Shown: positions 7,002-17,728, counted from the stretch's first letter. The stretch: DNA of 64,000 bases from a virus (IMGVR_UViG_3300035698_013504:32001-96000); one strand, 5' to 3'. Numbers and translations are program-made. The notes: generated by a model not told the origin, from the letters alone.

Positions 7002-8105
7002 ATGACAGAGACCTGGAACGATGAAGACCGAAAAGCGATAATCGACCACCTACGCGAGCGTGTTGGTCCTGACGTATCCAATAACGGGCCGGACGCGCAA
7101 ACGGAGATGATTGATAGTTTGCTCAACAGCCCGGCGGGCCAGGCGCGCCTTACGCGGTATATGAAGGGGTACAACGATCGACAGACGGCCGGGTATGACC
7201 AGGACCGTGATGACCACTTCGCCACACAGAATCGCGACTCTTTGGCACAAGGCAACCTGTGGTTGCGTAACGGAGCTATTGGCGCCGCCTTGGCCGGTAG
7301 TGGGTTTGCGCTCTACAAGCTGTTGATGAAGAAGCGTCCCGAAGACATCGTTGAGGAGGAAGGCATGGGCGCGATGCCCGGCACTTCTTTCGTGAACATG
7401 CCGTGGGCGAAGGCGGCCTCAGCAGAGAAGACCGCAGGTCTCCTGGAGGTACTGCAGCGGTGGGCCCTACCTGTAGGGGCCGGGGTCTACTTCAAGAAAG
7501 ACATAGGAAATGCCGTCAACCGCGGCGTTGGGCACATAAAGACGATGGATAAGCCCAAGCATCCCATGCATCACTCGATGATGTGGCCCGCGCTAGGTCT
7601 TGGTGTTCCGGCCATTGCCGGTCTTGCGTATATGCTGACTAACAAAGGCATCACGATGTCGAGGCATAGTTCAACCGATGAGCAGCTCGCGGCGGTGAAG
7701 GAGCAGTTGCGGCAAACACTCACTGGCGAGTATAACGCGGGTGAAGAGAAGGAGAGCGCCCAGATGCTCGATAAACTCGCAGCGTCATGGGAGCGCGGTG
7801 AACTCTTTGAGAAGCAAGCCGACCCAGAAGCGGCTGACGTTAACCCGCAAGACGTCGAGGATGAGATGCGCAATAGAGCCGTGCCCCCGACCGACAGTCC
7901 CCTACAGGGCTTGTGGGGTTCGGGTAAAGGCGCTGCGGCTTTGTTGGCTGCTGGGCTGCTCCTGACGTCCTTCTCTGCCTCCAAGTCGTTCTTCGACAAG
8001 TCCGATCCGAATCGAGCGAAGACGAAGGCGCTGAGAGACGCGCTACGTCAACGCATGAGACTCTCGCAGCCGAACCTTCAGCTCATGTCGCCCGAAGCCG
8101 TGTAA
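7002..8105 (+). CDS. Hypothetical protein with several hydrophobic segments and K-x-A motifs
   Basis: Four hydrophobic/Gly-rich segments; EKTAG, DKLAA, EKQAD motifs. Confidence 0.75.
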   Translation: MTETWNDEDRKAIIDHLRERVGPDVSNNGPDAQTEMIDSLLNSPAGQARLTRYMKGYNDRQTAGYDQDRDDHFATQNRDSLAQGNLWLRNGAIGAALAGSGFALYKLLMKKRPEDIVEEEGMGAMPGTSFVNMPWAKAASAEKTAGLLEVLQRWALPVGAGVYFKKDIGNAVNRGVGHIKTMDKPKHPMHHSMMWPALGLGVPAIAGLAYMLTNKGITMSRHSSTDEQLAAVKEQLRQTLTGEYNAGEEKESAQMLDKLAASWERGELFEKQADPEAADVNPQDVEDEMRNRAVPPTDSPLQGLWGSGKGAAALLAAGLLLTSFSASKSFFDKSDPNRAKTKALRDALRQRMRLSQPNLQLMSPEAV

Positions 8106-8127
8106 TAGACAATGGAGCCATACCTAG

Positions 8128-11100
8128 ATGCCCAAGATTCTCGGAGAGGACATCTTTTCGTTCGATGATATCCCGGCCGCACGTAAAGATATCTTCGCTC
8201 GTACCCTCTCGGCTTTTCAGGGAAAATACCCCATTGAGAACTCGAGGTACAAACTTCGGCTGCAGAACCTGCGGTACGACAAGCCCAAAGACTTTTCACT
8301 AAGCGATCAGAAGAAGGCGCTACTCCAGCACGGTTCACTCTCTCACAGACTTAAGGGTACGTGGACGCTGGAGGACAAAGCTGGTCAGGTGGTTGACGCG
8401 GCAGAGCGTGTTGTCGCACACGTGCCCTATATGACAAACCGGGGTACGTTTATCAACCAAGGTCGTGAATATACGATTACCAACCAGATGCGTCTTCGCC
8501 CTGGGGTGTACGCTCGTGAGAAAGAGAACGGAGCCCTTGAGGCTCACTTCAACGTCAAACCTGGATCAGGTTCCTCTTTCAGAGTTTACATGGAGCCTGA
8601 GACCGGTATCTTTCGTCTCAACATTCATCAGGCGACTCCGAAACTGTTTCCAGTCCTTCGGGCGATGGGTATTGACCGACGAGAACTCATCAAGTGGTGG
8701 GGAGAAGATATCGTCAGAGTCAACGAAGAAGCCGACGACCCTAGGGCCGTCAAGCGACTCCACGAGATCCTGACCCGCAAGCGCGCGAAGAAGGGCGTCG
8801 GCGACAACGAGGACGTAGCTAAGACTTTGCGCGAAGCTCTTGAAGCCATGGAGCTCGACGAAGAGACAACGACATCTACGCTCGGCGCCGCGTACAAGAA
8901 TGCGTCTGCTCCGGCCATCCTCCGCGCGACACAGAAGCTGCTTAACATCAGACACGGTAAGGAAGAGGCCGATGACCGAGACTCACTTCGATACCAAACC
9001 TTCCACACACCTGCAGACTTCTTTGCAGAGCGGGTTACCCTTGATGCCGGTCAGAAGTCCCGAAGACTTCTCTGGCGTTCAACCCTTCGGAGCGGGGTGC
9101 AGCACATCACGGGCGGGGCGCTTACCCCCCAGATGGAGAGCGTCCTTCTTCATTCAGGGCTAGGCCAGCCACTTGAGGAGATCAACCCCCTCGACATCCA
9201 CGATCAGCGCCACCGAGTTGTACGTTTAGGTGAGGGCGGTATCTCTTCAATCGATAGAATCCCCGAAGAGAGTCGTAATGTGCAACCGTCCTACTTCGGC
9301 CTCATTGACCCCATCCGTACCCCGGAGTCCATCAAGGTTGGTGTCGACAACCGCATTGCTCATCACACCTATTACGGCAAGGACGGTAAGTTCTACAGCC
9401 AGCTGCAGAACCCTAAGACCGGGGAGACAGAGTACGTTGACGCGGCAGAGATGTCGAAGTCTACGATCGCCTTCCCTGAGGAGATGGGGAAGAAGGGCAG
9501 CAAGGTCCGCGCCATGGTCGGCGGTTCCAGTGTTGAGTTCGTGGACAAGAAGGCTGTCGACTACATTCTTCCCACAAGCACACAGATGTTCAACTTCCAC
9601 TCCAACCTTGTCCCGTTTATCAGCGGTATCAAGGGTGGCCGCCTTCTCATGGGTTCCAAGTTCTTCAACCAAGCTCTTGCCCTTCGTGAGGGCGAGGCTC
9701 CGCTCGTTCAGGCCCTTGATCCTCACGAGACCGGTATCCGAGGCAAGGATACTAGCTTTGAGGATCTGGCGGGTACCAGCTTAGGCGCTGTGCATGCTAA
9801 GGATTCGGGGCAGGTCTTACGAGTTACGAAGGACGCTGTCTCAGTCAAACATGCAGACGGAAAGGTGAAGACGTATGACCTGTACAATAACTTCCCCTTC
9901 AACCGCAAAACCTTTATCCATAACACAGCGGTTGTGCAGCCGGGCGACGTCGTCAAACCAGGGCAGATACTTGCGCGGAGCAACTACACCGATAAGGGTG
10001 GCTCGCTCTCTATGGGGGTCAACCTCCGAACCGCTTATATGCCTTACAAAGGACTGAACTTCGAGGATGCGATTGTCATCTCCGAGGGCGCCGCGAAGAG
10101 GATGGCCAGTGAGCATATGTACAGCCGGGACATTGACGAGTCTGAGGGTGCAAAGGTAAGCCGTCGCAACTTCATCTCAATGTTCCCTACGAAGTACGAG
10201 AAGCCCCAGCTCGACACGATTGATGAAAACGGCGTGATCAAGCCCGGCACGACCGTGAAGAAGGGCGACCCGTTGATTCTCGGCGTAATGAAGCGCCCGG
10301 CTTCTAAGCTGTACCGCGGCGGTCGAGTCTCTATGTTCAAGGACATCTCAGTCGTATGGGACCACGAGGCTGACGGTGTAATCACCGACGTCGAGAAGAA
10401 AAAGGGCGGTTGGAACGTCATCGTCAAGTCTTACGAGCAGATGCAGGAGGGTGACAAGCTCTCTGGCCGCTACGGTGACAAGGGCGTGGTAGCCCGTATC
10501 GTCCCTGACGCACAGATGCCACACGGTAAGGACGGCGTCCCCTACGAGGTCTTACTTAACCCCCTCGGTATCGTCAGTCGTACTAACCCGAGCCAGATCT
10601 ACGAAGCGCTCCTCGGTAAGATTGCCCGCAAGCGCGGCGTACCCTATAAGGTGCCTGCGTTCATGGATAAGTCTCTTATCGACTACACTCGTAGAGAGAT
10701 GGCGCGACACAATGTCACCGACACCGAAGATCTCATTGATCCCATGACCGGTAAGAAGATTCCCGACGTATTGACTGGTGAGCGTTTCATCCTCAAGCTC
10801 CAGCACACAGCCGAAAGTAAGGGTAGTGGACGTTCACAGGCATCGTACACAACGGAAGGTCTTCCTGCGGGCGGTGGCGACGAAGGTGCGAAGAAGATTG
10901 GCCAGATGGCTTTGACCGCGCTTCTCTCTCACGGAGCCAGCGAGGTGATCCGTGATGCCGCCGTTGTACGCGGTCAGCGTAACGACGACTACTGGCGAGC
11001 TTTCCGCCTTGGGTACTCACCGCCCACACCCAAGGAGACCCTCGTCTACAAGAAGTTCCTTGACAGCCTCAAGGCAGCCGGTATTAACGTGTCGAAGAAG

Positions 11101-12507
11101 GGCAACGATGTTCACGTCTTTGCGCTCACCAACAATGACGTGAAGACTATGTCACACGGAGAGATCAAGTCCTCCGACACACTGGACCCGAAGAGTGGTC
11201 GCCCCATCCCGGGCGGCTTGTTTGACATGAAGACGACAGGTGGTGTTGGCGGCAACAACTGGGCGCACATCAAGCTGCCCGAGCCTATTTTGAATCCTGT
11301 CATGGAGAAGCCCGCGCAGGTTCTCCTCGGCATCACCGGCCCTAAGTTCATGAGTGTTGTGTCCGGTAAGACACCGCTGCACGGTAAGTATGGTGGGCAT
11401 GCGCTGGTAGAGGCCTTAAAGCGTATCAACGTCGACCAGGAGATCGAGCGCACACGACAGGAGGTGCGTACAGCCACGCAGACTAAGCGCGACCGGGCAG
11501 TCAAGAAGCTTGGCTACCTGAATGCGATGAAGAAGCATGGCGTGAGCCCGCAGGACTTCATGTTGAGCTCGGTCCCGGTACTTCCCCCGTCTTTCCGTCC
11601 GATCGTGATGCAGGACAAGATGAAGCTGGTTGCGCACCCCAACCTTCTGTATAAGGATCTGTTGGACGCGAAGCAGGACTTCACCGAGCTCTACCCCGAT
11701 GTAGGTGACGAGGGCGTTGGTGATGAGCGTCTACGCATCTACAACTCATTCAAGGCTGTTGCCGGGCTTGGCTCACCTGTATCCAGGAAGCTACAGGAGA
11801 AAAGTGTCCAAGGTCTCCTCGGTCACATCTTTGGCGGAAGCCCTAAGATGGGCGCCTTCCAGCGTAGAGTCCTCGGCATTCCTACTGACGTAGTAGGTCG
11901 AGCCGCGATTACACCGAACCCCTCGCTGAACATGGACCAGGTTGGTCTACCCGAGGAGAAGGCGTGGACGATCTACCGCCCCTTCATCATTCGTAAGCTG
12001 GTACGTAGAGGTATGCCCGCGGTCGCAGCAGCCAAGCTTGTTGCGAGCAAAGGTAAAGCCGCACACGCCGCGATGTTGGAAGTTGCGAGTGAGCGCCCCG
12101 TATTGATCAACCGCGCCCCCACGCTCCATAAGTTCGGTTTGATGGCCGCATGGCCTGTTATCGTTAAGGGTCACACGTTGCAGATTCCGCCGGTTATCGT
12201 CAGCGGGTTTAACGCCGACTTCGACGGCGATGCGATGAATTACCACGTCCCGGTAACGGATGAGGCGGTCAGGGAAGCAAAGGAGAAAATGCTCCCCAGT
12301 AGCAACCTTCTTTCGGTGTCAGACTTCAAAACTCACTACCACCCTAAGAATGAGTTCTTGCTTGGACTCTACCTTGCGAGTAAGATGAAGAAGAAGAAAC
12401 AACAGGCCAAGACGTTCAATACGAAGGAAGACGCGCTTAAGGCGTATGCGCGTGGCGAACTTACCGTAGATGACCCGGTCATCATTATGCAGGATGAAAA
12501 GTTATGA
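8128..12507 (+). CDS. DNA-directed RNA polymerase, beta subunit fused to the N-terminal half of beta' (contains the catalytic NADFDGD)
   Basis: beta motifs VPYMTNRGTF, TPESIKVG, GLNFEDAIVIS, GDKLSGRYGDKG, LNPLGIVSR; beta' motifs PVLPPSFRP, NRAPTLH, FNADFDGD; junction near 11090-11110. Confidence 0.95.
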   Translation: MPKILGEDIFSFDDIPAARKDIFARTLSAFQGKYPIENSRYKLRLQNLRYDKPKDFSLSDQKKALLQHGSLSHRLKGTWTLEDKAGQVVDAAERVVAHVPYMTNRGTFINQGREYTITNQMRLRPGVYAREKENGALEAHFNVKPGSGSSFRVYMEPETGIFRLNIHQATPKLFPVLRAMGIDRRELIKWWGEDIVRVNEEADDPRAVKRLHEILTRKRAKKGVGDNEDVAKTLREALEAMELDEETTTSTLGAAYKNASAPAILRATQKLLNIRHGKEEADDRDSLRYQTFHTPADFFAERVTLDAGQKSRRLLWRSTLRSGVQHITGGALTPQMESVLLHSGLGQPLEEINPLDIHDQRHRVVRLGEGGISSIDRIPEESRNVQPSYFGLIDPIRTPESIKVGVDNRIAHHTYYGKDGKFYSQLQNPKTGETEYVDAAEMSKSTIAFPEEMGKKGSKVRAMVGGSSVEFVDKKAVDYILPTSTQMFNFHSNLVPFISGIKGGRLLMGSKFFNQALALREGEAPLVQALDPHETGIRGKDTSFEDLAGTSLGAVHAKDSGQVLRVTKDAVSVKHADGKVKTYDLYNNFPFNRKTFIHNTAVVQPGDVVKPGQILARSNYTDKGGSLSMGVNLRTAYMPYKGLNFEDAIVISEGAAKRMASEHMYSRDIDESEGAKVSRRNFISMFPTKYEKPQLDTIDENGVIKPGTTVKKGDPLILGVMKRPASKLYRGGRVSMFKDISVVWDHEADGVITDVEKKKGGWNVIVKSYEQMQEGDKLSGRYGDKGVVARIVPDAQMPHGKDGVPYEVLLNPLGIVSRTNPSQIYEALLGKIARKRGVPYKVPAFMDKSLIDYTRREMARHNVTDTEDLIDPMTGKKIPDVLTGERFILKLQHTAESKGSGRSQASYTTEGLPAGGGDEGAKKIGQMALTALLSHGASEVIRDAAVVRGQRNDDYWRAFRLGYSPPTPKETLVYKKFLDSLKAAGINVSKKGNDVHVFALTNNDVKTMSHGEIKSSDTLDPKSGRPIPGGLFDMKTTGGVGGNNWAHIKLPEPILNPVMEKPAQVLLGITGPKFMSVVSGKTPLHGKYGGHALVEALKRINVDQEIERTRQEVRTATQTKRDRAVKKLGYLNAMKKHGVSPQDFMLSSVPVLPPSFRPIVMQDKMKLVAHPNLLYKDLLDAKQDFTELYPDVGDEGVGDERLRIYNSFKAVAGLGSPVSRKLQEKSVQGLLGHIFGGSPKMGAFQRRVLGIPTDVVGRAAITPNPSLNMDQVGLPEEKAWTIYRPFIIRKLVRRGMPAVAAAKLVASKGKAAHAAMLEVASERPVLINRAPTLHKFGLMAAWPVIVKGHTLQIPPVIVSGFNADFDGDAMNYHVPVTDEAVREAKEKMLPSSNLLSVSDFKTHYHPKNEFLLGLYLASKMKKKKQQAKTFNTKEDALKAYARGELTVDDPVIIMQDEKL

Positions 12508-12767
12508 TGTTACTCGACGACATGTTTCTTCCAGAGCCGATGATTAAGGCCTCGCGCGCGTTCGATCAACTGCGCGTAGACCTGGCGTTCTCTTCCGCTA
12601 TTGAGAAGATATCCCGTAAGAAGTCGACGATCAGTGAAGCCGCCGAGAGGGTCGGTACAAAGGATAAGCCCGGCTTTAAGCTTTTGATGGATATGCGGAA
12701 AGACGACGAGAAACGTAAGAAGAAAAAGAAGAAGAAAAACAGACGCTCTCGACGTTCCAGGAGATAG
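12504..12767 (+). CDS. Small protein with strongly basic Lys/Arg C-terminal tail
   Basis: ATGA overlap with the RNAP stop; ends KRKKKKKKKNRRSRRSRR. Confidence 0.6.
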   Translation: MMLLDDMFLPEPMIKASRAFDQLRVDLAFSSAIEKISRKKSTISEAAERVGTKDKPGFKLLMDMRKDDEKRKKKKKKKNRRSRRSRR

Positions 12768-12769
12768 AT

Positions 12770-12979
12770 GTGCCCATCCCAAGCAACAGTCTGCTAACCT
12801 TCAAAATACGGAAGCCATTGACTCCAGAACGACTTCCTAAGAAAATAGGTATTGAAGATCAACGTGTATGGCAGCAGTTGTACGACGGCCTTGCTGCCTC
12901 AAAGCAACGTGTAGTATCGGCGCACACAACTGCTCGCCAGAAGGTCAAAGATCTTTTCAAACGTGCGAGTGCAATCTGA
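12770..12979 (+). CDS. Small hypothetical protein
   Basis: GTG-start ORF filling the gap; GGAG upstream; weak support. Confidence 0.4.
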   Translation: MPIPSNSLLTFKIRKPLTPERLPKKIGIEDQRVWQQLYDGLAASKQRVVSAHTTARQKVKDLFKRASAI

Positions 12980-12998
12980 GCACAAGGAGGTTACACGT

Positions 12999-13673
12999 AT
13001 GTCGGGTATGAACGATAAGCTGTTAGATCAGCTGGAAGAGCGGTTTGAGAAGCAGAGCTTTGTCCCCATGGGCGCAGAAGGCGCCGCCGCTCCCCCGCCT
13101 ATGGATCCCGCTGGAGGCGCCGCGATGGCGTTGCCGCCCGGTATGCCTCCGATGGACCCGCAGATGATGGGCGGCGCGCCTCCCGGCATGCCTCCGATGC
13201 CCGGCGGTGACCCTGCCGCGATGGGTATGGACCCCGCCGCAATGGGCGGAGCCCCGGCTGAAGGCGGTGAGCAGGTTTCCGTTAGCATGGACGACCTTCG
13301 TCGCATGGTTCAAGAGATGGGTGGAGCAACCGCTGGTAGCGATCCTGCGGCCCCGGCCCCCGCTGGCGCCGACGTAAAGGGGCGTAAGGTTCAGCCCGAA
13401 GAACTCTCAAATAAGCTGGATGCGCTTAGCACTCGCTTCGACCAGTTGATTGGTGCGCTTACAGGTGGTGAGATGGGCGTACAACCCGCGCCGCCCCCCG
13501 ACGCTCTTGCTGGCGCTGACGGCAGTATGGCTGCACCTCCGGAAGAAACTGCGCCCGCACCCCCGCTGGACGAGATGATGGGCGCCCCGAAGGCCGCCAA
13601 CTTGAATGACGCCGTCAGTCGGTCTGTCGCCGGAATCGCCGCTCGTTTGCGCGCAAAGCTGCAACAGGAGTAG
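12999..13673 (+). CDS. Pro/Met/Gly-rich low-complexity protein
   Basis: AAGGAGG RBS before ATG 12999; EKQS motif then PPMDP/GGAPPGM repeats and a predicted short coiled coil. Confidence 0.75.
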   Translation: MSGMNDKLLDQLEERFEKQSFVPMGAEGAAAPPPMDPAGGAAMALPPGMPPMDPQMMGGAPPGMPPMPGGDPAAMGMDPAAMGGAPAEGGEQVSVSMDDLRRMVQEMGGATAGSDPAAPAPAGADVKGRKVQPEELSNKLDALSTRFDQLIGALTGGEMGVQPAPPPDALAGADGSMAAPPEETAPAPPLDEMMGAPKAANLNDAVSRSVAGIAARLRAKLQQE

Positions 13674-13675
13674 GC

Positions 13676-13924
13676 ATGAGGGTACGTGTACAGTCTGGAA
13701 GCATTTTAACATCAGCCCCGGTAGAATTACCGGATGTTGGCTCAGCTGTTGTCTATGACGATTACGGTCAGCCAATCGTTGTTGTTCAGAAGCAAGAAGA
13801 TGGGCAGATATTAATGGTGCGTGCTGGTGAGCCTAAGTTTCACGAGCTGCTCCGTATCCTAGGTATTGGGTTGAACGCTACGGTAACGGTTGGTTCCGTC
13901 CGTGACGGGAGGATTGAATCATGA
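13676..13924 (+). CDS. Small hypothetical protein
   Basis: Tightly packed ORF, ATGA overlap with the next gene. Confidence 0.65.
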   Translation: MRVRVQSGSILTSAPVELPDVGSAVVYDDYGQPIVVVQKQEDGQILMVRAGEPKFHELLRILGIGLNATVTVGSVRDGRIES

Positions 13925-15252
13925 CACGCGCACTTGTTGAGCGTCAAATCTACGCCTTTCTCGACGGTATCGACGAGTTTGGAAAACAAGCCTCGATGTC
14001 TGTTGGGCAGACCGAGAACCTGAAAGACGCCGCGCTGCTTCGTATATGGGATGAGATTGGGCGCCCCCCGATTGAGAAGGTTGCAGAGAATCCGCTCGGT
14101 GGCACCATGGATCCTGAAAACCTGGTCAAGCCGGTCCCGATGCCAGAGCCGGACCCCAAGGCACTCGGCGCCTCGCCGGGCCCCGCGGTCAAAATGCCTG
14201 AGCCAGATCCTAAGGCACTCGGCGCCTCGCCGGGACCCGCGGTCAAAATGCCTTCACCGTTTGGCCCTACCCAGTCTGGCGGCAACCTTTCCCCAGGAAA
14301 CAAAGTAGCGCCAGGTAAAACACCTGCGGCAAAACAGACCGCGGTAACCGACCCCAAGAAAACACAGAAGACCCCTGTAAATCGCGCGGGTCTTGTGCAA
14401 CAGTTTATCAACTATGCGATTAAGAACCCCGGACAGCTGGCCATGATTCTTTCGATGTTTACGGCTGGCGGTATCGGCGGAGGTATGATGGGCGGTTGGA
14501 AGGGCGGAATCGCGGGCGCTCTTGCTGGTGGTCTTACGGGTTATGGCCTTAGCACCATCCCCGAACTGCGGCAGTACGCCAAGGGTAAGACACAAAAATT
14601 GTTTGGAATCCGCTCCGGGGATGAGATTGCCAGCGGAGTGGCCAGACATCAGACGTTCAACCCGGTGCATGACGATTCAGACCTGGGAACACTGGGGCCG
14701 GATATCAGGGAATGGATTGAAAACAAGTTTCCTGAAGGTGAAATTATGCGTCATAAGGGCGCGCTCGCGGAGTCTATGGCGGAGTTTGAAGCGGCGAACC
14801 CGGGGCAAATCCCCTTCAAGGACGTAAACATCGAGATGTACAACAGCCTGCGTGAGCAGGTTGGCATGAAAACGCCGTGGACTCCAGCCCAGGGCCTTTC
14901 AGAGTATCTCGCGAACCCGCCACTGCCTGGTGCTGAGGCCACTGCCCAAGCCCCGGCGGCTCCGTTTGTGGTTACGGAAGAGCTAAATACGCAGCTGAAG
15001 AGCATTATAGACAAGATGAATAAGCCCAGGTTGGGGATGGTTCCGCCTGACGCGCTGGTTGGAATTATGATGCCCGGCGAACTTAAAGCACTTCACCCGC
15101 ACGAGCTGGCTACGCTTAAGCAAGCAGCCGCTGCCTTCAGGGCGCATACGGCCCAGCATCCTGAAAACGTACCAATGCCAGGTGTTAAGCCCGAGTTGTG
15201 GCCCGGCGCTGTTCGGCTCTTCAAAATAGGCATTGAGCAAGGTCTCTTTTAG
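13921..15252 (+). CDS. Hypothetical protein with internal repeat and glycine zipper
   Basis: GKQAS and EKVAE motifs; duplicated MPEPDPKALGASPGPAVK; GGIGGGMMGGWKGGIAGALAGGLTG. Confidence 0.75.
   Translation: MTRALVERQIYAFLDGIDEFGKQASMSVGQTENLKDAALLRIWDEIGRPPIEKVAENPLGGTMDPENLVKPVPMPEPDPKALGASPGPAVKMPEPDPKALGASPGPAVKMPSPFGPTQSGGNLSPGNKVAPGKTPAAKQTAVTDPKKTQKTPVNRAGLVQQFINYAIKNPGQLAMILSMFTAGGIGGGMMGGWKGGIAGALAGGLTGYGLSTIPELRQYAKGKTQKLFGIRSGDEIASGVARHQTFNPVHDDSDLGTLGPDIREWIENKFPEGEIMRHKGALAESMAEFEAANPGQIPFKDVNIEMYNSLREQVGMKTPWTPAQGLSEYLANPPLPGAEATAQAPAAPFVVTEELNTQLKSIIDKMNKPRLGMVPPDALVGIMMPGELKALHPHELATLKQAAAAFRAHTAQHPENVPMPGVKPELWPGAVRLFKIGIEQGLF
14140..14247 (+). repeat. Two in-frame 54-nt tandem repeats
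   Basis: MPEPDPKALGASPGPAVK encoded at 14140-14193 and 14194-14247 with synonymous differences. Confidence 0.9.
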
Positions 15253-15268
15253 TAGCGCGTTACAGAAC
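15250..15268. promoter_or_regulatory. Recurring intergenic motif, copy 2
   Basis: TAGTAGCGCGTTACAGAAC from the upstream stop codon to just before the ATG of the beta' C-terminal gene. Confidence 0.45.
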
Positions 15269-15269
15269 T

Positions 15270-17120
15270 ATGATCAGAACGACACTTGGACAAGTACTTG
15301 TGAACGAGGCGCTCCCGGAAGACCTCCGGGACTATGACCGTGTGTTCACAAAGAAATCAGTGCCCGACCTGTTCATGTCTCTAGCGCAGAATCACCCGGA
15401 GAAGTATCGCGATGTCATTCAGAAACTGATGATGATTGGCCAGGAGGTGTCGACCGGCTACGGCCGTAACGCCAGCCTCTCACTCAAGGATGTAGCCCCA
15501 CCTGAGGAGCGTAAAGACATCCTGGAGAAGCTAGAAGGTGAGATCGCCGCCCTTAACGAGAACCCGACGCTACCTACAGCATCGAGGAACAAGAGTATTA
15601 TCCTCAAGGTGTTGAAAGCCCAACAGCTATTGAAGACCATTAACATGGAAACAGGAGAGCGCGACGGTAACACCTTTGCTCTTCAAATCCTTTCCGGCGC
15701 CCGCGGTAACCCCAACCAGTTCGCATCTCTACGAGTTGGTGATGGACTCGTTACCGATCACCGCGATGACCCTATCCCCATCCCTATCCTTCATAGTTAC
15801 GCTGAGGGCCTGGACCCTGTCGAGTACTGGGCTGGTTCCTACGGTGCGCGTAAGGGTACGATGGCTGGTAACCTCGGTACACCTAAGTCTGGTTTCTTCG
15901 GCAAACAGATCGCGTTGTCAGCCCACCGCATGATTGTCACTGAGAAGGACTGCGGCACAGAGAATGGTATCCCTGTTGACGCAGACGACTCCGACAACGA
16001 AGGCGCCCTGCTCGCCAGAGGATACGGCAAGTACAACGCAAATACGATCATCACACCTCGCATGACTCAGGAGCTTGAGAAGGAGAAGTCGATCCTCGTA
16101 CGATCTCCTATCACCTGCGATGCGGCTAACGGTGTGTGTCAAAAGTGTGTTGGGGTACGTGAACGCGGCACGCTTCCCCCTCTTGGTGATAACGTAGGGG
16201 TGACAGCCGCGACCGCGATCTCTGAACCTATGACGCAGGCGCCCCTCTCCGCCAAGCATACAGGCGGTGTCGCAGAAGAGAAGGACAAGAAGGTGCAGGG
16301 GTTCGACGCAATCAACAGGCTCGTCCAGATCCCTAAGACCTTCCCGGAAGCCGCGACAGTCTCACGAGTTGACGGCGTCGTTACGAATATCATTGAAGCG
16401 CCCCAGGGTGGCCACTTCGTCGAGGTAGGCGGAGAACGCCACTACGTACCCGAAGAGCGCGAGATCACCATTAAAGAGGGCGAGACCCTCGAGGCGGGTG
16501 ACGCGCTGTGTGATGGTATCCACAACCCGGCGGACGTGGCGCAGTACAAAGGTATTGGACAGGCGCGTAAGACATTCGTTGAGCAGTTCCGCCAAGTCGC
16601 AGACAATACGAACATTCGCGTCAACCGCCGGAACCTTGAGCTTCTGTCGCGCGGTATTGTAAACCACGTGCGAGTCAACGAGCTTGACGGTGTCGATGAT
16701 GCGCTGCCGGGGGATGTCCGAGAATTTGACTCCGTGACGAGAGGGTATCAGCCTCGTTACGGCTTCAAGACGTTGACTCCCCAGCGTGCGGTTGGTAGTT
16801 ACCTCGAGAAGCCAATCAACCAGTACTCGATTGGCACAAAGGTTACGCCCCGCATGGTAAAAGAGATGCAGGGCATGGGCATCAAGAAACTTACATCACA
16901 CGTTGACCCGCCTCCCTTTAACCCAGAGATGCGGCGTATCATGGAGACGCTCTCCTACGCCGACGATTGGATGGTAAGGTTAGGCGGTTGGTACTTAAAG
17001 AAGGGGTTGGGCGAAGCCGCGCATTTCGGCTCAACATCTAAGCAGCACGGATCTTCATATATCCCCGCTCTCGCGCAGGGAACCCAGTTCGGGCGGGTGC
17101 CCGAAGGAAAAGGATACTAA
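15270..17120 (+). CDS. DNA-directed RNA polymerase beta' C-terminal subunit
   Basis: TTLGQ start motif, SGARG, bridge helix GARKG...TEKDCGT, Zn site RSPITC...CQKC, trigger loop ISEPMTQ...KHTGG. Confidence 0.92.
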   Translation: MIRTTLGQVLVNEALPEDLRDYDRVFTKKSVPDLFMSLAQNHPEKYRDVIQKLMMIGQEVSTGYGRNASLSLKDVAPPEERKDILEKLEGEIAALNENPTLPTASRNKSIILKVLKAQQLLKTINMETGERDGNTFALQILSGARGNPNQFASLRVGDGLVTDHRDDPIPIPILHSYAEGLDPVEYWAGSYGARKGTMAGNLGTPKSGFFGKQIALSAHRMIVTEKDCGTENGIPVDADDSDNEGALLARGYGKYNANTIITPRMTQELEKEKSILVRSPITCDAANGVCQKCVGVRERGTLPPLGDNVGVTAATAISEPMTQAPLSAKHTGGVAEEKDKKVQGFDAINRLVQIPKTFPEAATVSRVDGVVTNIIEAPQGGHFVEVGGERHYVPEEREITIKEGETLEAGDALCDGIHNPADVAQYKGIGQARKTFVEQFRQVADNTNIRVNRRNLELLSRGIVNHVRVNELDGVDDALPGDVREFDSVTRGYQPRYGFKTLTPQRAVGSYLEKPINQYSIGTKVTPRMVKEMQGMGIKKLTSHVDPPPFNPEMRRIMETLSYADDWMVRLGGWYLKKGLGEAAHFGSTSKQHGSSYIPALAQGTQFGRVPEGKGY

Positions 17121-17121
17121 G

Positions 17122-17592
17122 ATGGATATGGAAAAGCAGAGTGCCGCGTTTCAGGCTGGTTTCATCCTCGGCTCCGAAAGTATGGACAAGACGGCGTTTG
17201 GCCCCGAAGATCTTGGTATTACCCCTGAGAATCAGGCGCCCATCTATGGTGGGCTTGGTGGAGCCGCGATTGGTGGGATGTTGCCCCTCCTCATGGGCGG
17301 TAAGAAGAAACGCTCACCGTGGGCGAGCATTCTTGCAGCTCTTGGTGGCGGAGCCCTAGGCGCCGGTGGCGGTATGCTGTACAACCATTACAACCAGAAG
17401 CCCGCGCCCGTAGAGCAGGCTCACGCCAGTACAGACGATGCAAGTCTGAGCGGCGACGCTATGGGCGGACCTGCAGGAGCAGAAGGCCCACAGGACAAGG
17501 CCACCCCGTACGTTGGCGCTGAAACAAACCTTCCGGGAGGAAAACCGGACAAGGACACTGCGGCTAAGCCGGATAAGGAAGATGCCGCGTAG
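17122..17592 (+). CDS. Hypothetical glycine-zipper protein
   Basis: EKQSAAFQAGF and DKTAF motifs; GGLGGAAIGGMLPLL and LGGGALGAGGG segments. Confidence 0.7.
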   Translation: MDMEKQSAAFQAGFILGSESMDKTAFGPEDLGITPENQAPIYGGLGGAAIGGMLPLLMGGKKKRSPWASILAALGGGALGAGGGMLYNHYNQKPAPVEQAHASTDDASLSGDAMGGPAGAEGPQDKATPYVGAETNLPGGKPDKDTAAKPDKEDAA

Positions 17593-17669
17593 TAACTATC
17601 AAGCCCATTTCGCCGTAGAGTACAACCTATATAGGCCGCCTAAATGTTTGGTAGCAAGCTAGTTGCTTG

Positions 17670-17698
17670 TTGAGCACGAAACAAATCCGTGCTAAACT
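17670..17698 (+). promoter_or_regulatory. sigma70-like promoter candidate
   Basis: TTGAGC-N17-TAAACT in a 136-nt intergenic gap; same -10 hexamer as the promoter at 88-116. Confidence 0.5.
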
Positions 17699-17728
17699 GA
17701 AACAGTAATGGCGGTGTAACGGAGGATC

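Follow-up and report, generated by a model that had tools for sequence, protein, structure and literature searches.

The window analyzed here, a 64,000-nucleotide (nt) stretch comprising bases 32001-96000 of the complete 200,903-bp IMG/VR virus record IMGVR_UViG_3300035698_013504, from a salt-lake phage with 127-bp direct terminal repeats, encodes a bacterial-like RNA polymerase (RNAP) whose large subunits have been both joined and cut. Chain 1 holds the whole of β together with the β′ clamp, clamp helices and NADFDGD barrel; chain 2, the product of a separate gene, holds the bridge helix, the second zinc site, the trigger loop and the C-terminal module. We propose that the two chains form a tethered core without α and ω, directed by a phage σ and probably packaged in the virion, and that the layout arose by one fusion followed by one break. 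To this reading as a whole we assign a probability of roughly 0.7.

Two chains of one polymerase

The fused gene occupies positions 8128..12507 (like every feature described in the two RNAP genes and between them, on the + strand). Its product, of 1459 amino acids (aa) and with zero cysteines, is a complete β that runs on into β′ as far as the equivalent of about residue 555 of E. coli β′. An earlier note on this DNA had read one 1459-aa open reading frame (ORF) with a seamless junction near 11090-11110, ending past NADFDGD, and the ORF call, Pfam, phmmer searches of the PDB and MAFFT alignment all agree with that description. Pfam places the β domains Rpb2_3 and Rpb2_6 at aa 349-908 and the β′ domains Rpb1_1 and Rpb1_2 at aa 1101-1387 (E 3.8e-52 for Rpb2_6 and 1.1e-25 for Rpb1_2). 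In the PDB searches, the β part (best E 6e-66) is aligned to Thermus β residue 1112/1119 at about aa 998, and the β′ part begins at Taq β′ residue 8, at about aa 995. In the MAFFT alignment with E. coli β and β′, the β sequence ...GINV (aa 988, nt 11091) is followed by six residues and then by the equivalent of IKIALASP (aa 995, nt 11110), which corresponds to about residue 17 of E. coli β′ when E. coli and four relatives are aligned; there is no linker. The junction (11056..11169) leads from the C-end of β, ...FLDSLKAAGINV, across the six residues to the β′ start, VHVFALTNNDVKTMSHGEIK, and the alignment shows it conserved in Salmonella phage Arash, Vibrio phage D69 and the closer relatives L008 and L009.

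The β portion (aa 1-994; 8128..11109) lacks the E. coli lineage-specific insertions and carries the lysine motif of the β double-psi barrel, GDKLSGRYGDKGV (aa 775-787; nt 10450-10488), the counterpart of E. coli GDKMAGRHGNKG. In the β′ portion, a short loop (11212..11277) stands in place of the N-terminal zinc ribbon, E. coli residues C70, C72, C85 and C88 falling within a 32-aa deletion. The clamp helices (11635..11751), the predicted docking site of a phage σ-like protein, are 11 aa shorter than in E. coli, and the tips of both the β flap and the clamp helices are reduced. NADFDGD, the catalytic Mg site of the β′ barrel (aa 1362-1368; 12211..12231), is followed by a further 91 aa before the ORF ends. 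With GDKLSGRYGDKGV and NADFDGD on the same protein, both double-psi barrels do lie in one chain, as had been claimed.

The rest of β′, from TTLGQ onward, had been described as a separate gene 2.76 kb downstream, and such a gene is indeed present at 15270..17120, after a gap of 2763 nt. Its 616-aa product matches Rpb1_5 (Pfam) and aligns to the remainder of bacterial β′. Chain 2 begins MIRTTLGQ, in which TTLGQ is the equivalent of E. coli TTVGR, residue 573, and contains SGARG (15693-15713), the bridge helix (15804-15926; aligned to E. coli 769-805), a four-cysteine zinc site (15942-16154) and a trigger loop (16197-16268; aligned to E. coli 911-945) from which SI3 is missing. Thus, of the two β′ zinc sites, the N-terminal ribbon is deleted and the second retains all four cysteines. 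The break falls in the hairpin turn just past the barrel, at about E. coli β′ 555/573, and in the MAFFT alignment the positions of break and junction are identical in the window, L008, L009, Arash and D69, despite identities of 28-57%.

The β′-C proteins of some relatives show further changes. That of L009 (L009:17651-19507) has none of the four cysteines of the second zinc site, all of them retained in the window, Arash and D69; since L009 has lost them, this site is dispensable in the fused-and-split family. In L025, L026 and L027, the β′-C ORFs are 1215-1313 aa long, the frame being extended by about 600 residues, as if joined to a downstream gene.

An assembly artefact visible in read data was named in the earlier note as a finding that would overturn it. 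In Logan contigs from four salt-lake metagenome runs (four studies; depth 2-5x, and one of the runs may be the source sample of the window), positions 10800-15400 are identical to the window, with zero substitutions or indels, and single contigs span the junction, the stop codon at 12505-12507 and the start of β′-C. Loose contig ends occur in one run at 12382-12735, which we attribute to other strains or to cross-matching of low-complexity sequence. The shallow depth of these public runs leaves some room for the view that fusion or split arose falsely in assembly or sequencing, or that the gene is decaying, but contigs of all four runs match the window exactly, the catalytic motifs are unbroken, and the layout recurs in independent assemblies, with the same junction and break in cultured isolates and 69 independent loci, down to 28% identity. 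We regard this explanation as practically negligible.

Five ORFs lie in the gap between the two genes, each stop overlapping or nearly abutting the next start; they are of 87 aa (12504-12767), 69 aa (12770-12979), 236 aa (12963-13673), 82 aa (13676-13924) and 443 aa (13921-15252). Most of the products are of low complexity, with much Pro, Gly and Met. Pfam (E ≤ 1) and PHROGs gave no match for any of the five, and BLAST of the five and their neighbours against Arash and D69 gave no match. The ORFs at 12504-12767 and 12963-13673 are extreme in this respect: one ends in KKKKKKKKNRRSRRSRR, and the other protein consists mostly of Pro, Gly, Met and Ala repeats flanked by short helical ends. These low-complexity proteins may be internal virion or ejection proteins. 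The earlier count of five ORFs stands; their description as unrelated does not hold so well, as L008 and L009 likewise have five spacer genes of broadly similar sizes, and the 82-aa ORF, alone among the five, is conserved by BLAST in these closer relatives (44% identity in L008, 29% in L009). Across the IMG/VR relatives, the spacer measures from about 0.6 to 4.3 kb.

Could the halves of β′ be rejoined by intron splicing, a split intein or ribosome bypass, giving one mature β::β′ chain? Mobile elements do target the RNAP genes of the fused family. In Vibrio phage D181 (L210:4503-5414, OZ196140.1), the fused gene contains a group I intron (RF00028, 100.7 bits, E 1.4e-26), after which comes an ORF for a homing endonuclease, and the sister phage D69 has no intron; many fused RNAP relatives are 1700-2450 aa long, with inteins or LAGLIDADG domains (PF14528, PF14890). 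In the window, on the other hand, chain 1 closes with its own stop codon and chain 2 opens with its own ATG, the alignment with E. coli is continuous, with no additional intein-like residues at either end, and Rfam gives no match at E ≤ 1, and no intron, in 8000-17700. In addition, the spacer is filled with five coding ORFs, includes opposite-strand genes in Arash, and varies in length as described. Rejoining is therefore very improbable. A scan for σ-70 consensus promoters found 6 where 4.4 were expected from shuffles, that is, not above expectation, and no convincing promoter or terminator was seen within the RNAP gene block; since it also contains no intron, the block looks like one operon.

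Relatives and descent of the fused polymerases

PF00562 and PF00623 occur on one chain in more than 120 metagenomic proteins, which show 48-60% identity over the junction region and come from contigs of up to 216 kb. For the IMG/VR survey, the query was the β′-C alignment alone, so as to avoid bias toward fused proteins. It found 80 loci, 69 of them assessable, and β and β′-N are on a single ORF in 68 of the 69. The remaining locus, L074, also has the fused junction, together with an extra break: three adjoining genes (L074:5497-11815) encode a 1115-aa "β" that reaches the first ~95 residues of β′, a 386-aa protein with the rest of β′-N, overlapping in another frame, and a 608-aa β′-C beginning 3 nt past the stop. 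The extra break is either natural or a frameshift error. Cultured members of the family are Salmonella phage Arash (gp206, 1525 aa; gp216, 606 aa) and Vibrio phages D69, D148 and D181. The fusion and split points, which the earlier note had wished to see surveyed in related phages, are thus shared by uncultured and cultured relatives alike. Many of the long fused chains of 1700-2450 aa also carry extra domains, namely SET (PF00856), GNAT (PF00583, PF13508), LigT (PF02834) and 2H-SAK (PF22547).

Other layouts were sought in IMG/VR with a degenerate DNA pattern for NADFDGD combined with ORF analysis, and the resulting numbers are samples, to be read as lower bounds. At least seven uncultured loci (L096, L138, L139, L140, L165, L186 and L192) encode fully fused, single-chain β::β′ enzymes of 2021-2231 aa where complete, 33-39% identical to the window protein; examples are L138:5822-11884 (-), L140:104-6742 (+), L186:1205-7438 (-) and L192:1783-8265 (+). 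These enzymes share the β–β′ junction of the window and the loss of the zinc ribbon, but their chain is unbroken through the hairpin turn where the window β′ is cut. We found no paper describing fully fused single-chain phage β::β′ enzymes.

At further loci, an unsplit β′ of 903-1010 aa adjoins a separate β, and the lengths match those of the mReC phages, a group of large uncultured tailed phages with bacterial-like β and β′. In two mReC-b-like loci, L160:229-6116 and L173, the gene order is β′ then β, opposite to bacterial rpoB-rpoC. The cultured Rhizobium phage RHph_Y65 (L006:6953-10336; 207 kb) has an unsplit β′ of 1127 aa on a long branch, with the zinc ribbon kept, and the queries used detected no β near its β′ gene. 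A supposed unsplit relative, Bacteriophage sp. MT836236, was rejected on finding bacterial rpoBC with ribosomal genes and served as outgroup only, as did Staphylococcus and Acinetobacter "phage" records. Indeed, OR844998.1, CAKLQH020000005.1, MT836236.1 and similar "phage" records contain bacterial rpoB/rpoC with ribosomal protein genes and are host contamination or misfiled contigs.

The earlier note had called for a phylogeny of the RNAP, and a β′ tree with bacterial and phage enzymes was computed under LG+C20 on an alignment of 37 rows and 1015 columns, with four bacterial sequences as the root, after a quick version with 51 rows. The phiKZ/AR9 enzymes, too divergent for a sequence tree, were excluded, as they were from the tree of the mReC study for long-branch artefacts (PMC7481178). 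The split family is monophyletic (support 100/99) and is joined by the fully fused enzymes (100/100), which form a group of their own (85/70). Outside both lies, as nearest outgroup, the mReC-like clade (100/99), assigned as such by subunit lengths and adjacency. The zinc ribbon is missing in both fused groups and kept in bacteria, the mReC-b-like loci and the Rhizobium phage.

Since the split family is sister to the fully fused enzymes, with mReC-like enzymes, which have separate β and β′, outside, fusion with loss of the zinc ribbon likely came first, and a single break of β′ in the hairpin turn second. In the common ancestor, β and β′ would have been joined and the β′ ribbon lost; β′ would later have been broken once, and spacer genes would then have gathered in the gap.

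The note had further suggested an independent capture of rpoBC. The tree does not show this: the window enzyme sits inside a phage-only radiation, next to the other split enzymes, then the fully fused, then the mReC-like ones. The published position of the mReC RNAPs, a deep branch beside Bacteria (PMC7481178), is evidence against recent capture from a host, and the idea of independent capture is, on these sequences, better replaced by descent within an old radiation of phage RNAPs. Its companion claim, that the enzyme is closer to bacterial RNAPs than to those of phiKZ/AR9 type, fared better, since the PDB match of β (E 6e-66) compares with 1e-28 or weaker for PHROGs described as "RNA polymerase beta subunit", although these were chosen by description and may not be of phiKZ/AR9 type.

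Proposed assembly, promoter recognition and delivery

Textbook assembly of bacterial RNAP proceeds from α2 through β to β′. The complete 200,903-bp genome has one PF00562 match, and hence a single RNAP set, and searches of it with PF01000, PF01193, PF03118 and PF01192 gave no match to α or ω at E ≤ 1, the controls being positive. The observation in the earlier note that no α is recognizable in the window is in this way extended to the genome and to ω. The covalent β–β′ tether would take over part of the assembly role of the α dimer, and chain 2 would dock non-covalently, in the manner of the split β′ halves of cyanobacteria and phiKZ-type enzymes. Engineered β–β′ fusions and split β′ fragments of the E. 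coli enzyme were reportedly functional in the hands of Severinov and colleagues in 1996-1997. Moreover, the phiKZ and AR9 cores, which are α-less and ω-less, are catalytically active (PMC7598289).

Promoter recognition would be provided by the product of the only σ-70-family-like gene of the genome (55943..56728, +; 261 aa), seated on the clamp helices of chain 1. Pfam finds Sigma70_r3 in this protein at 36.5 bits, above the cut-off, and r4 at 21.1 bits, below it. Each of the 5 split-family genomes tested has an ortholog, which in Arash is the σ gp10 detected in virions. The predicted complex of β′-N with the σ-like protein scores 0.72, against 0.00 for the best control, a mark that 58 of 80 solved complexes attain, as do 2 of 110 mismatched pairs; runs agree on at least 39% of contacts, and the partner has a predicted local distance difference test score (pLDDT) of at least 70. 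The predicted interface brings the clamp helices (P0001, about 1159-1203) against σ residues 42-80 and 112-118. Because σ on the β′ coiled-coil is a textbook solved pair, this prediction shows likeness rather than proof.

It is conceivable that the σ-like protein redirects the host RNAP, as happens in jumbo phages without an RNAP, and that the phage core uses another, unrecognized specificity factor in the manner of phiKZ/AR9. Phage σ factors acting on host RNAP are common (PMC7824862), the phage core has a reduced flap tip and shorter clamp helices, and the σ-like protein gives no Sigma70_r2 match in Pfam. We nevertheless consider this division of labour quite unlikely, given the ortholog in every tested genome that carries this RNAP, its presence in Arash virions alongside both RNAP chains, and the complex predicted on the phage's own clamp helices, even though the contrast of 0.72 with 0.00 may reflect resemblance to complexes already solved.

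By analogy with Arash, the RNAP would be packed in virions and injected, so that phage genes could then be read without the host RNAP. Virion proteomics of Arash gave gp206 the most spectra of all (3516), gp216 1210 spectra, and the σ gp10 100% coverage (PMC10585845), which suggests that the RNAP travels in the virion; the Arash RNAP genes also lie among portal and structural genes. For the window phage, we judge packaging and injection to be probable on this analogy.

A different possibility is that the RNAP is made only in the cell, for middle and late genes, and is not injected, the host RNAP reading the early genes and the phage core perhaps borrowing host α or ω. In its favour, the virion evidence comes from Arash, and the window phage is known as a sequence; the particles prepared from Arash came with many non-structural enzymes; and the searches for α and ω covered the phage genome, so that host subunits could serve. 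To be set against this are the top spectral count of gp206, the abundance of gp216 and gp10, the placement of the Arash genes amid portal and structural genes, and the single RNAP set, which in a host-independent phage would have to serve the early genes as well. We hold expression in the cell alone to be unlikely, though a serious contender.

Several points weigh against the reading that we prefer, that of a tethered, σ-directed and virion-packaged core. The "structural proteome" of Arash comprises 88 proteins, including ribonucleotide reductases and ligases, and its authors allow for carry-over of abundant proteins (PMC10585845). In the window phage, packaging and a role in transcription are deduced from the genes, and, on sequence, the core might recruit host α or ω. 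Given the shortened flap tip and clamp helices and the missing Sigma70_r2 match, docking of σ may differ from the bacterial mode, and a k-mer search of 83 intergenic regions found no clear shared promoter motif. No obvious Shine-Dalgarno sequence is seen upstream of β′-C. Finally, the order of fusion then split depends on a root set by no more than four bacterial sequences and on 85/70 support for the fully fused group.

The strongest form of our proposal would be that chain 1, chain 2 and the σ-like protein constitute a self-sufficient holoenzyme without α and ω, delivered by the virion and running the whole transcription programme of the phage. This we put forward tentatively, at somewhat less than even odds. 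If true, it would be the smallest known σ-dependent RNAP of bacterial type, with a β–β′ tether replacing the scaffold of the α dimer, and the separate, fully fused, and fused-and-split states would record a remodelling of subunit architecture.

Significance and comparison with known systems

What is new here is the recognition of the split family as one clade, sister to the fully fused enzymes, with a layout that is present in GenBank records of cultured phages and yet has gone unremarked. In GenBank, the Arash chains are labelled "beta" and "beta'", and the Vibrio phage proteins "hypothetical". The earlier note had allowed that the layout might already be documented in characterized phages; it is indeed present in the characterized phage Arash, with its genes so annotated, but the Arash paper is silent on both fusion and split. 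Neither that paper nor the mReC paper (PMC7481178) nor reviews and surveys of 2020, 2021, 2025 and 2026 mention the combination of fusion and split, and keyword searches did not find it, subscription-only papers being outside the scope of this search.

A widespread natural enzyme thus combines bacterial-like catalytic modules and a σ-like factor with the lack of any α or ω gene, its large subunits having been tethered in one place and cut in another. Such a layout offers a direct test of the need for the α scaffold, the β′ zinc ribbon and chain continuity, and the system is tractable, as Arash, D69, D148 and D181 are in culture. For evolution, the fully fused sister group and the intron-bearing relative inform how split polymerase genes arise. 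For annotation, pipelines that require separate β and β′ hits, as did the mReC study, will miss the family.

The mReC RNAPs (Weinheimer & Aylward 2020, PMC7481178) come from phages that include some from related hypersaline samples, and their β′, like that of the window, is short and without the bacterial insertions. In the table of that paper, mReC phages have separate, adjacent β (~1000-1400 aa) and β′ (~900-1010 aa), often in two sets per genome, with no fusion and no split; β and β′ are listed there under different protein IDs, typically of ~1362 + 1005 aa or ~1007 + 904 aa (PMC7481178). The filter used in that study accepted only separate hits, each 800 aa or longer, and NADxDGD had to be present in the β′ hit (PMC7481178). 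In the window, NADFDGD is on the same protein as β, and a fused family would probably have been dropped by the filter because of its requirement for a separate β′ hit of that length bearing NADxDGD.

In Helicobacter and Wolinella (and Wolbachia), RpoBC joins the β C-terminus to the β′ N-terminus in one polypeptide, as in the window (PMC1557499). Fusions of the Helicobacter type include the whole of β′ (~2900 aa) and keep α and ω, whereas the window has no gene for either and its fused ORF stops just past the barrel, at about E. coli β′ residue 555. Since the window enzyme lies in a phage-only clade, the two fusions are independent.

The RpoC1/RpoC2 pair of cyanobacteria and plastids shows the other half of the arrangement: there, too, β′ is divided past the catalytic barrel, between the same domains (PMC7598289). 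Cyanobacterial RpoC1 is free-standing and RpoC2 has a large insertion; in the window, by contrast, β′-N is fused to β. Nor is the cut quite the same, as residue 14 of RpoC2 pairs with residue 25 of the window β′-C (an indirect comparison from phmmer coordinates only), which would place the cyanobacterial cut about 10-12 residues downstream of that in the window.

The phiKZ/AR9 RNAPs resemble the window enzyme in being phage-encoded, in the absence of α and ω, and in a β′ split after the barrel, and a virion form exists. They differ in that β comes in two or three pieces, that there are two sets of the enzyme, that a fifth subunit specific to these phages is added and that a σ homolog is missing; they are also far more divergent. 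The window enzyme has instead a whole β fused to β′-N, one set and a σ-like gene.

It is with Arash and D69 that the window enzyme agrees in every defining feature, namely a β::β′-N ORF, a separate β′-C of about 600 aa beginning at TT(V/L)G, and no zinc ribbon. The fusion, its junction and the break point are the same, the β′ ribbon is likewise lost, and all three belong to one clade of the tree, even though the identity of their RNAPs to that of the window is only 28-33%. The spacer differs, with five genes in the window, two small genes in D69, and nine, some of them on the opposite strand, in Arash.

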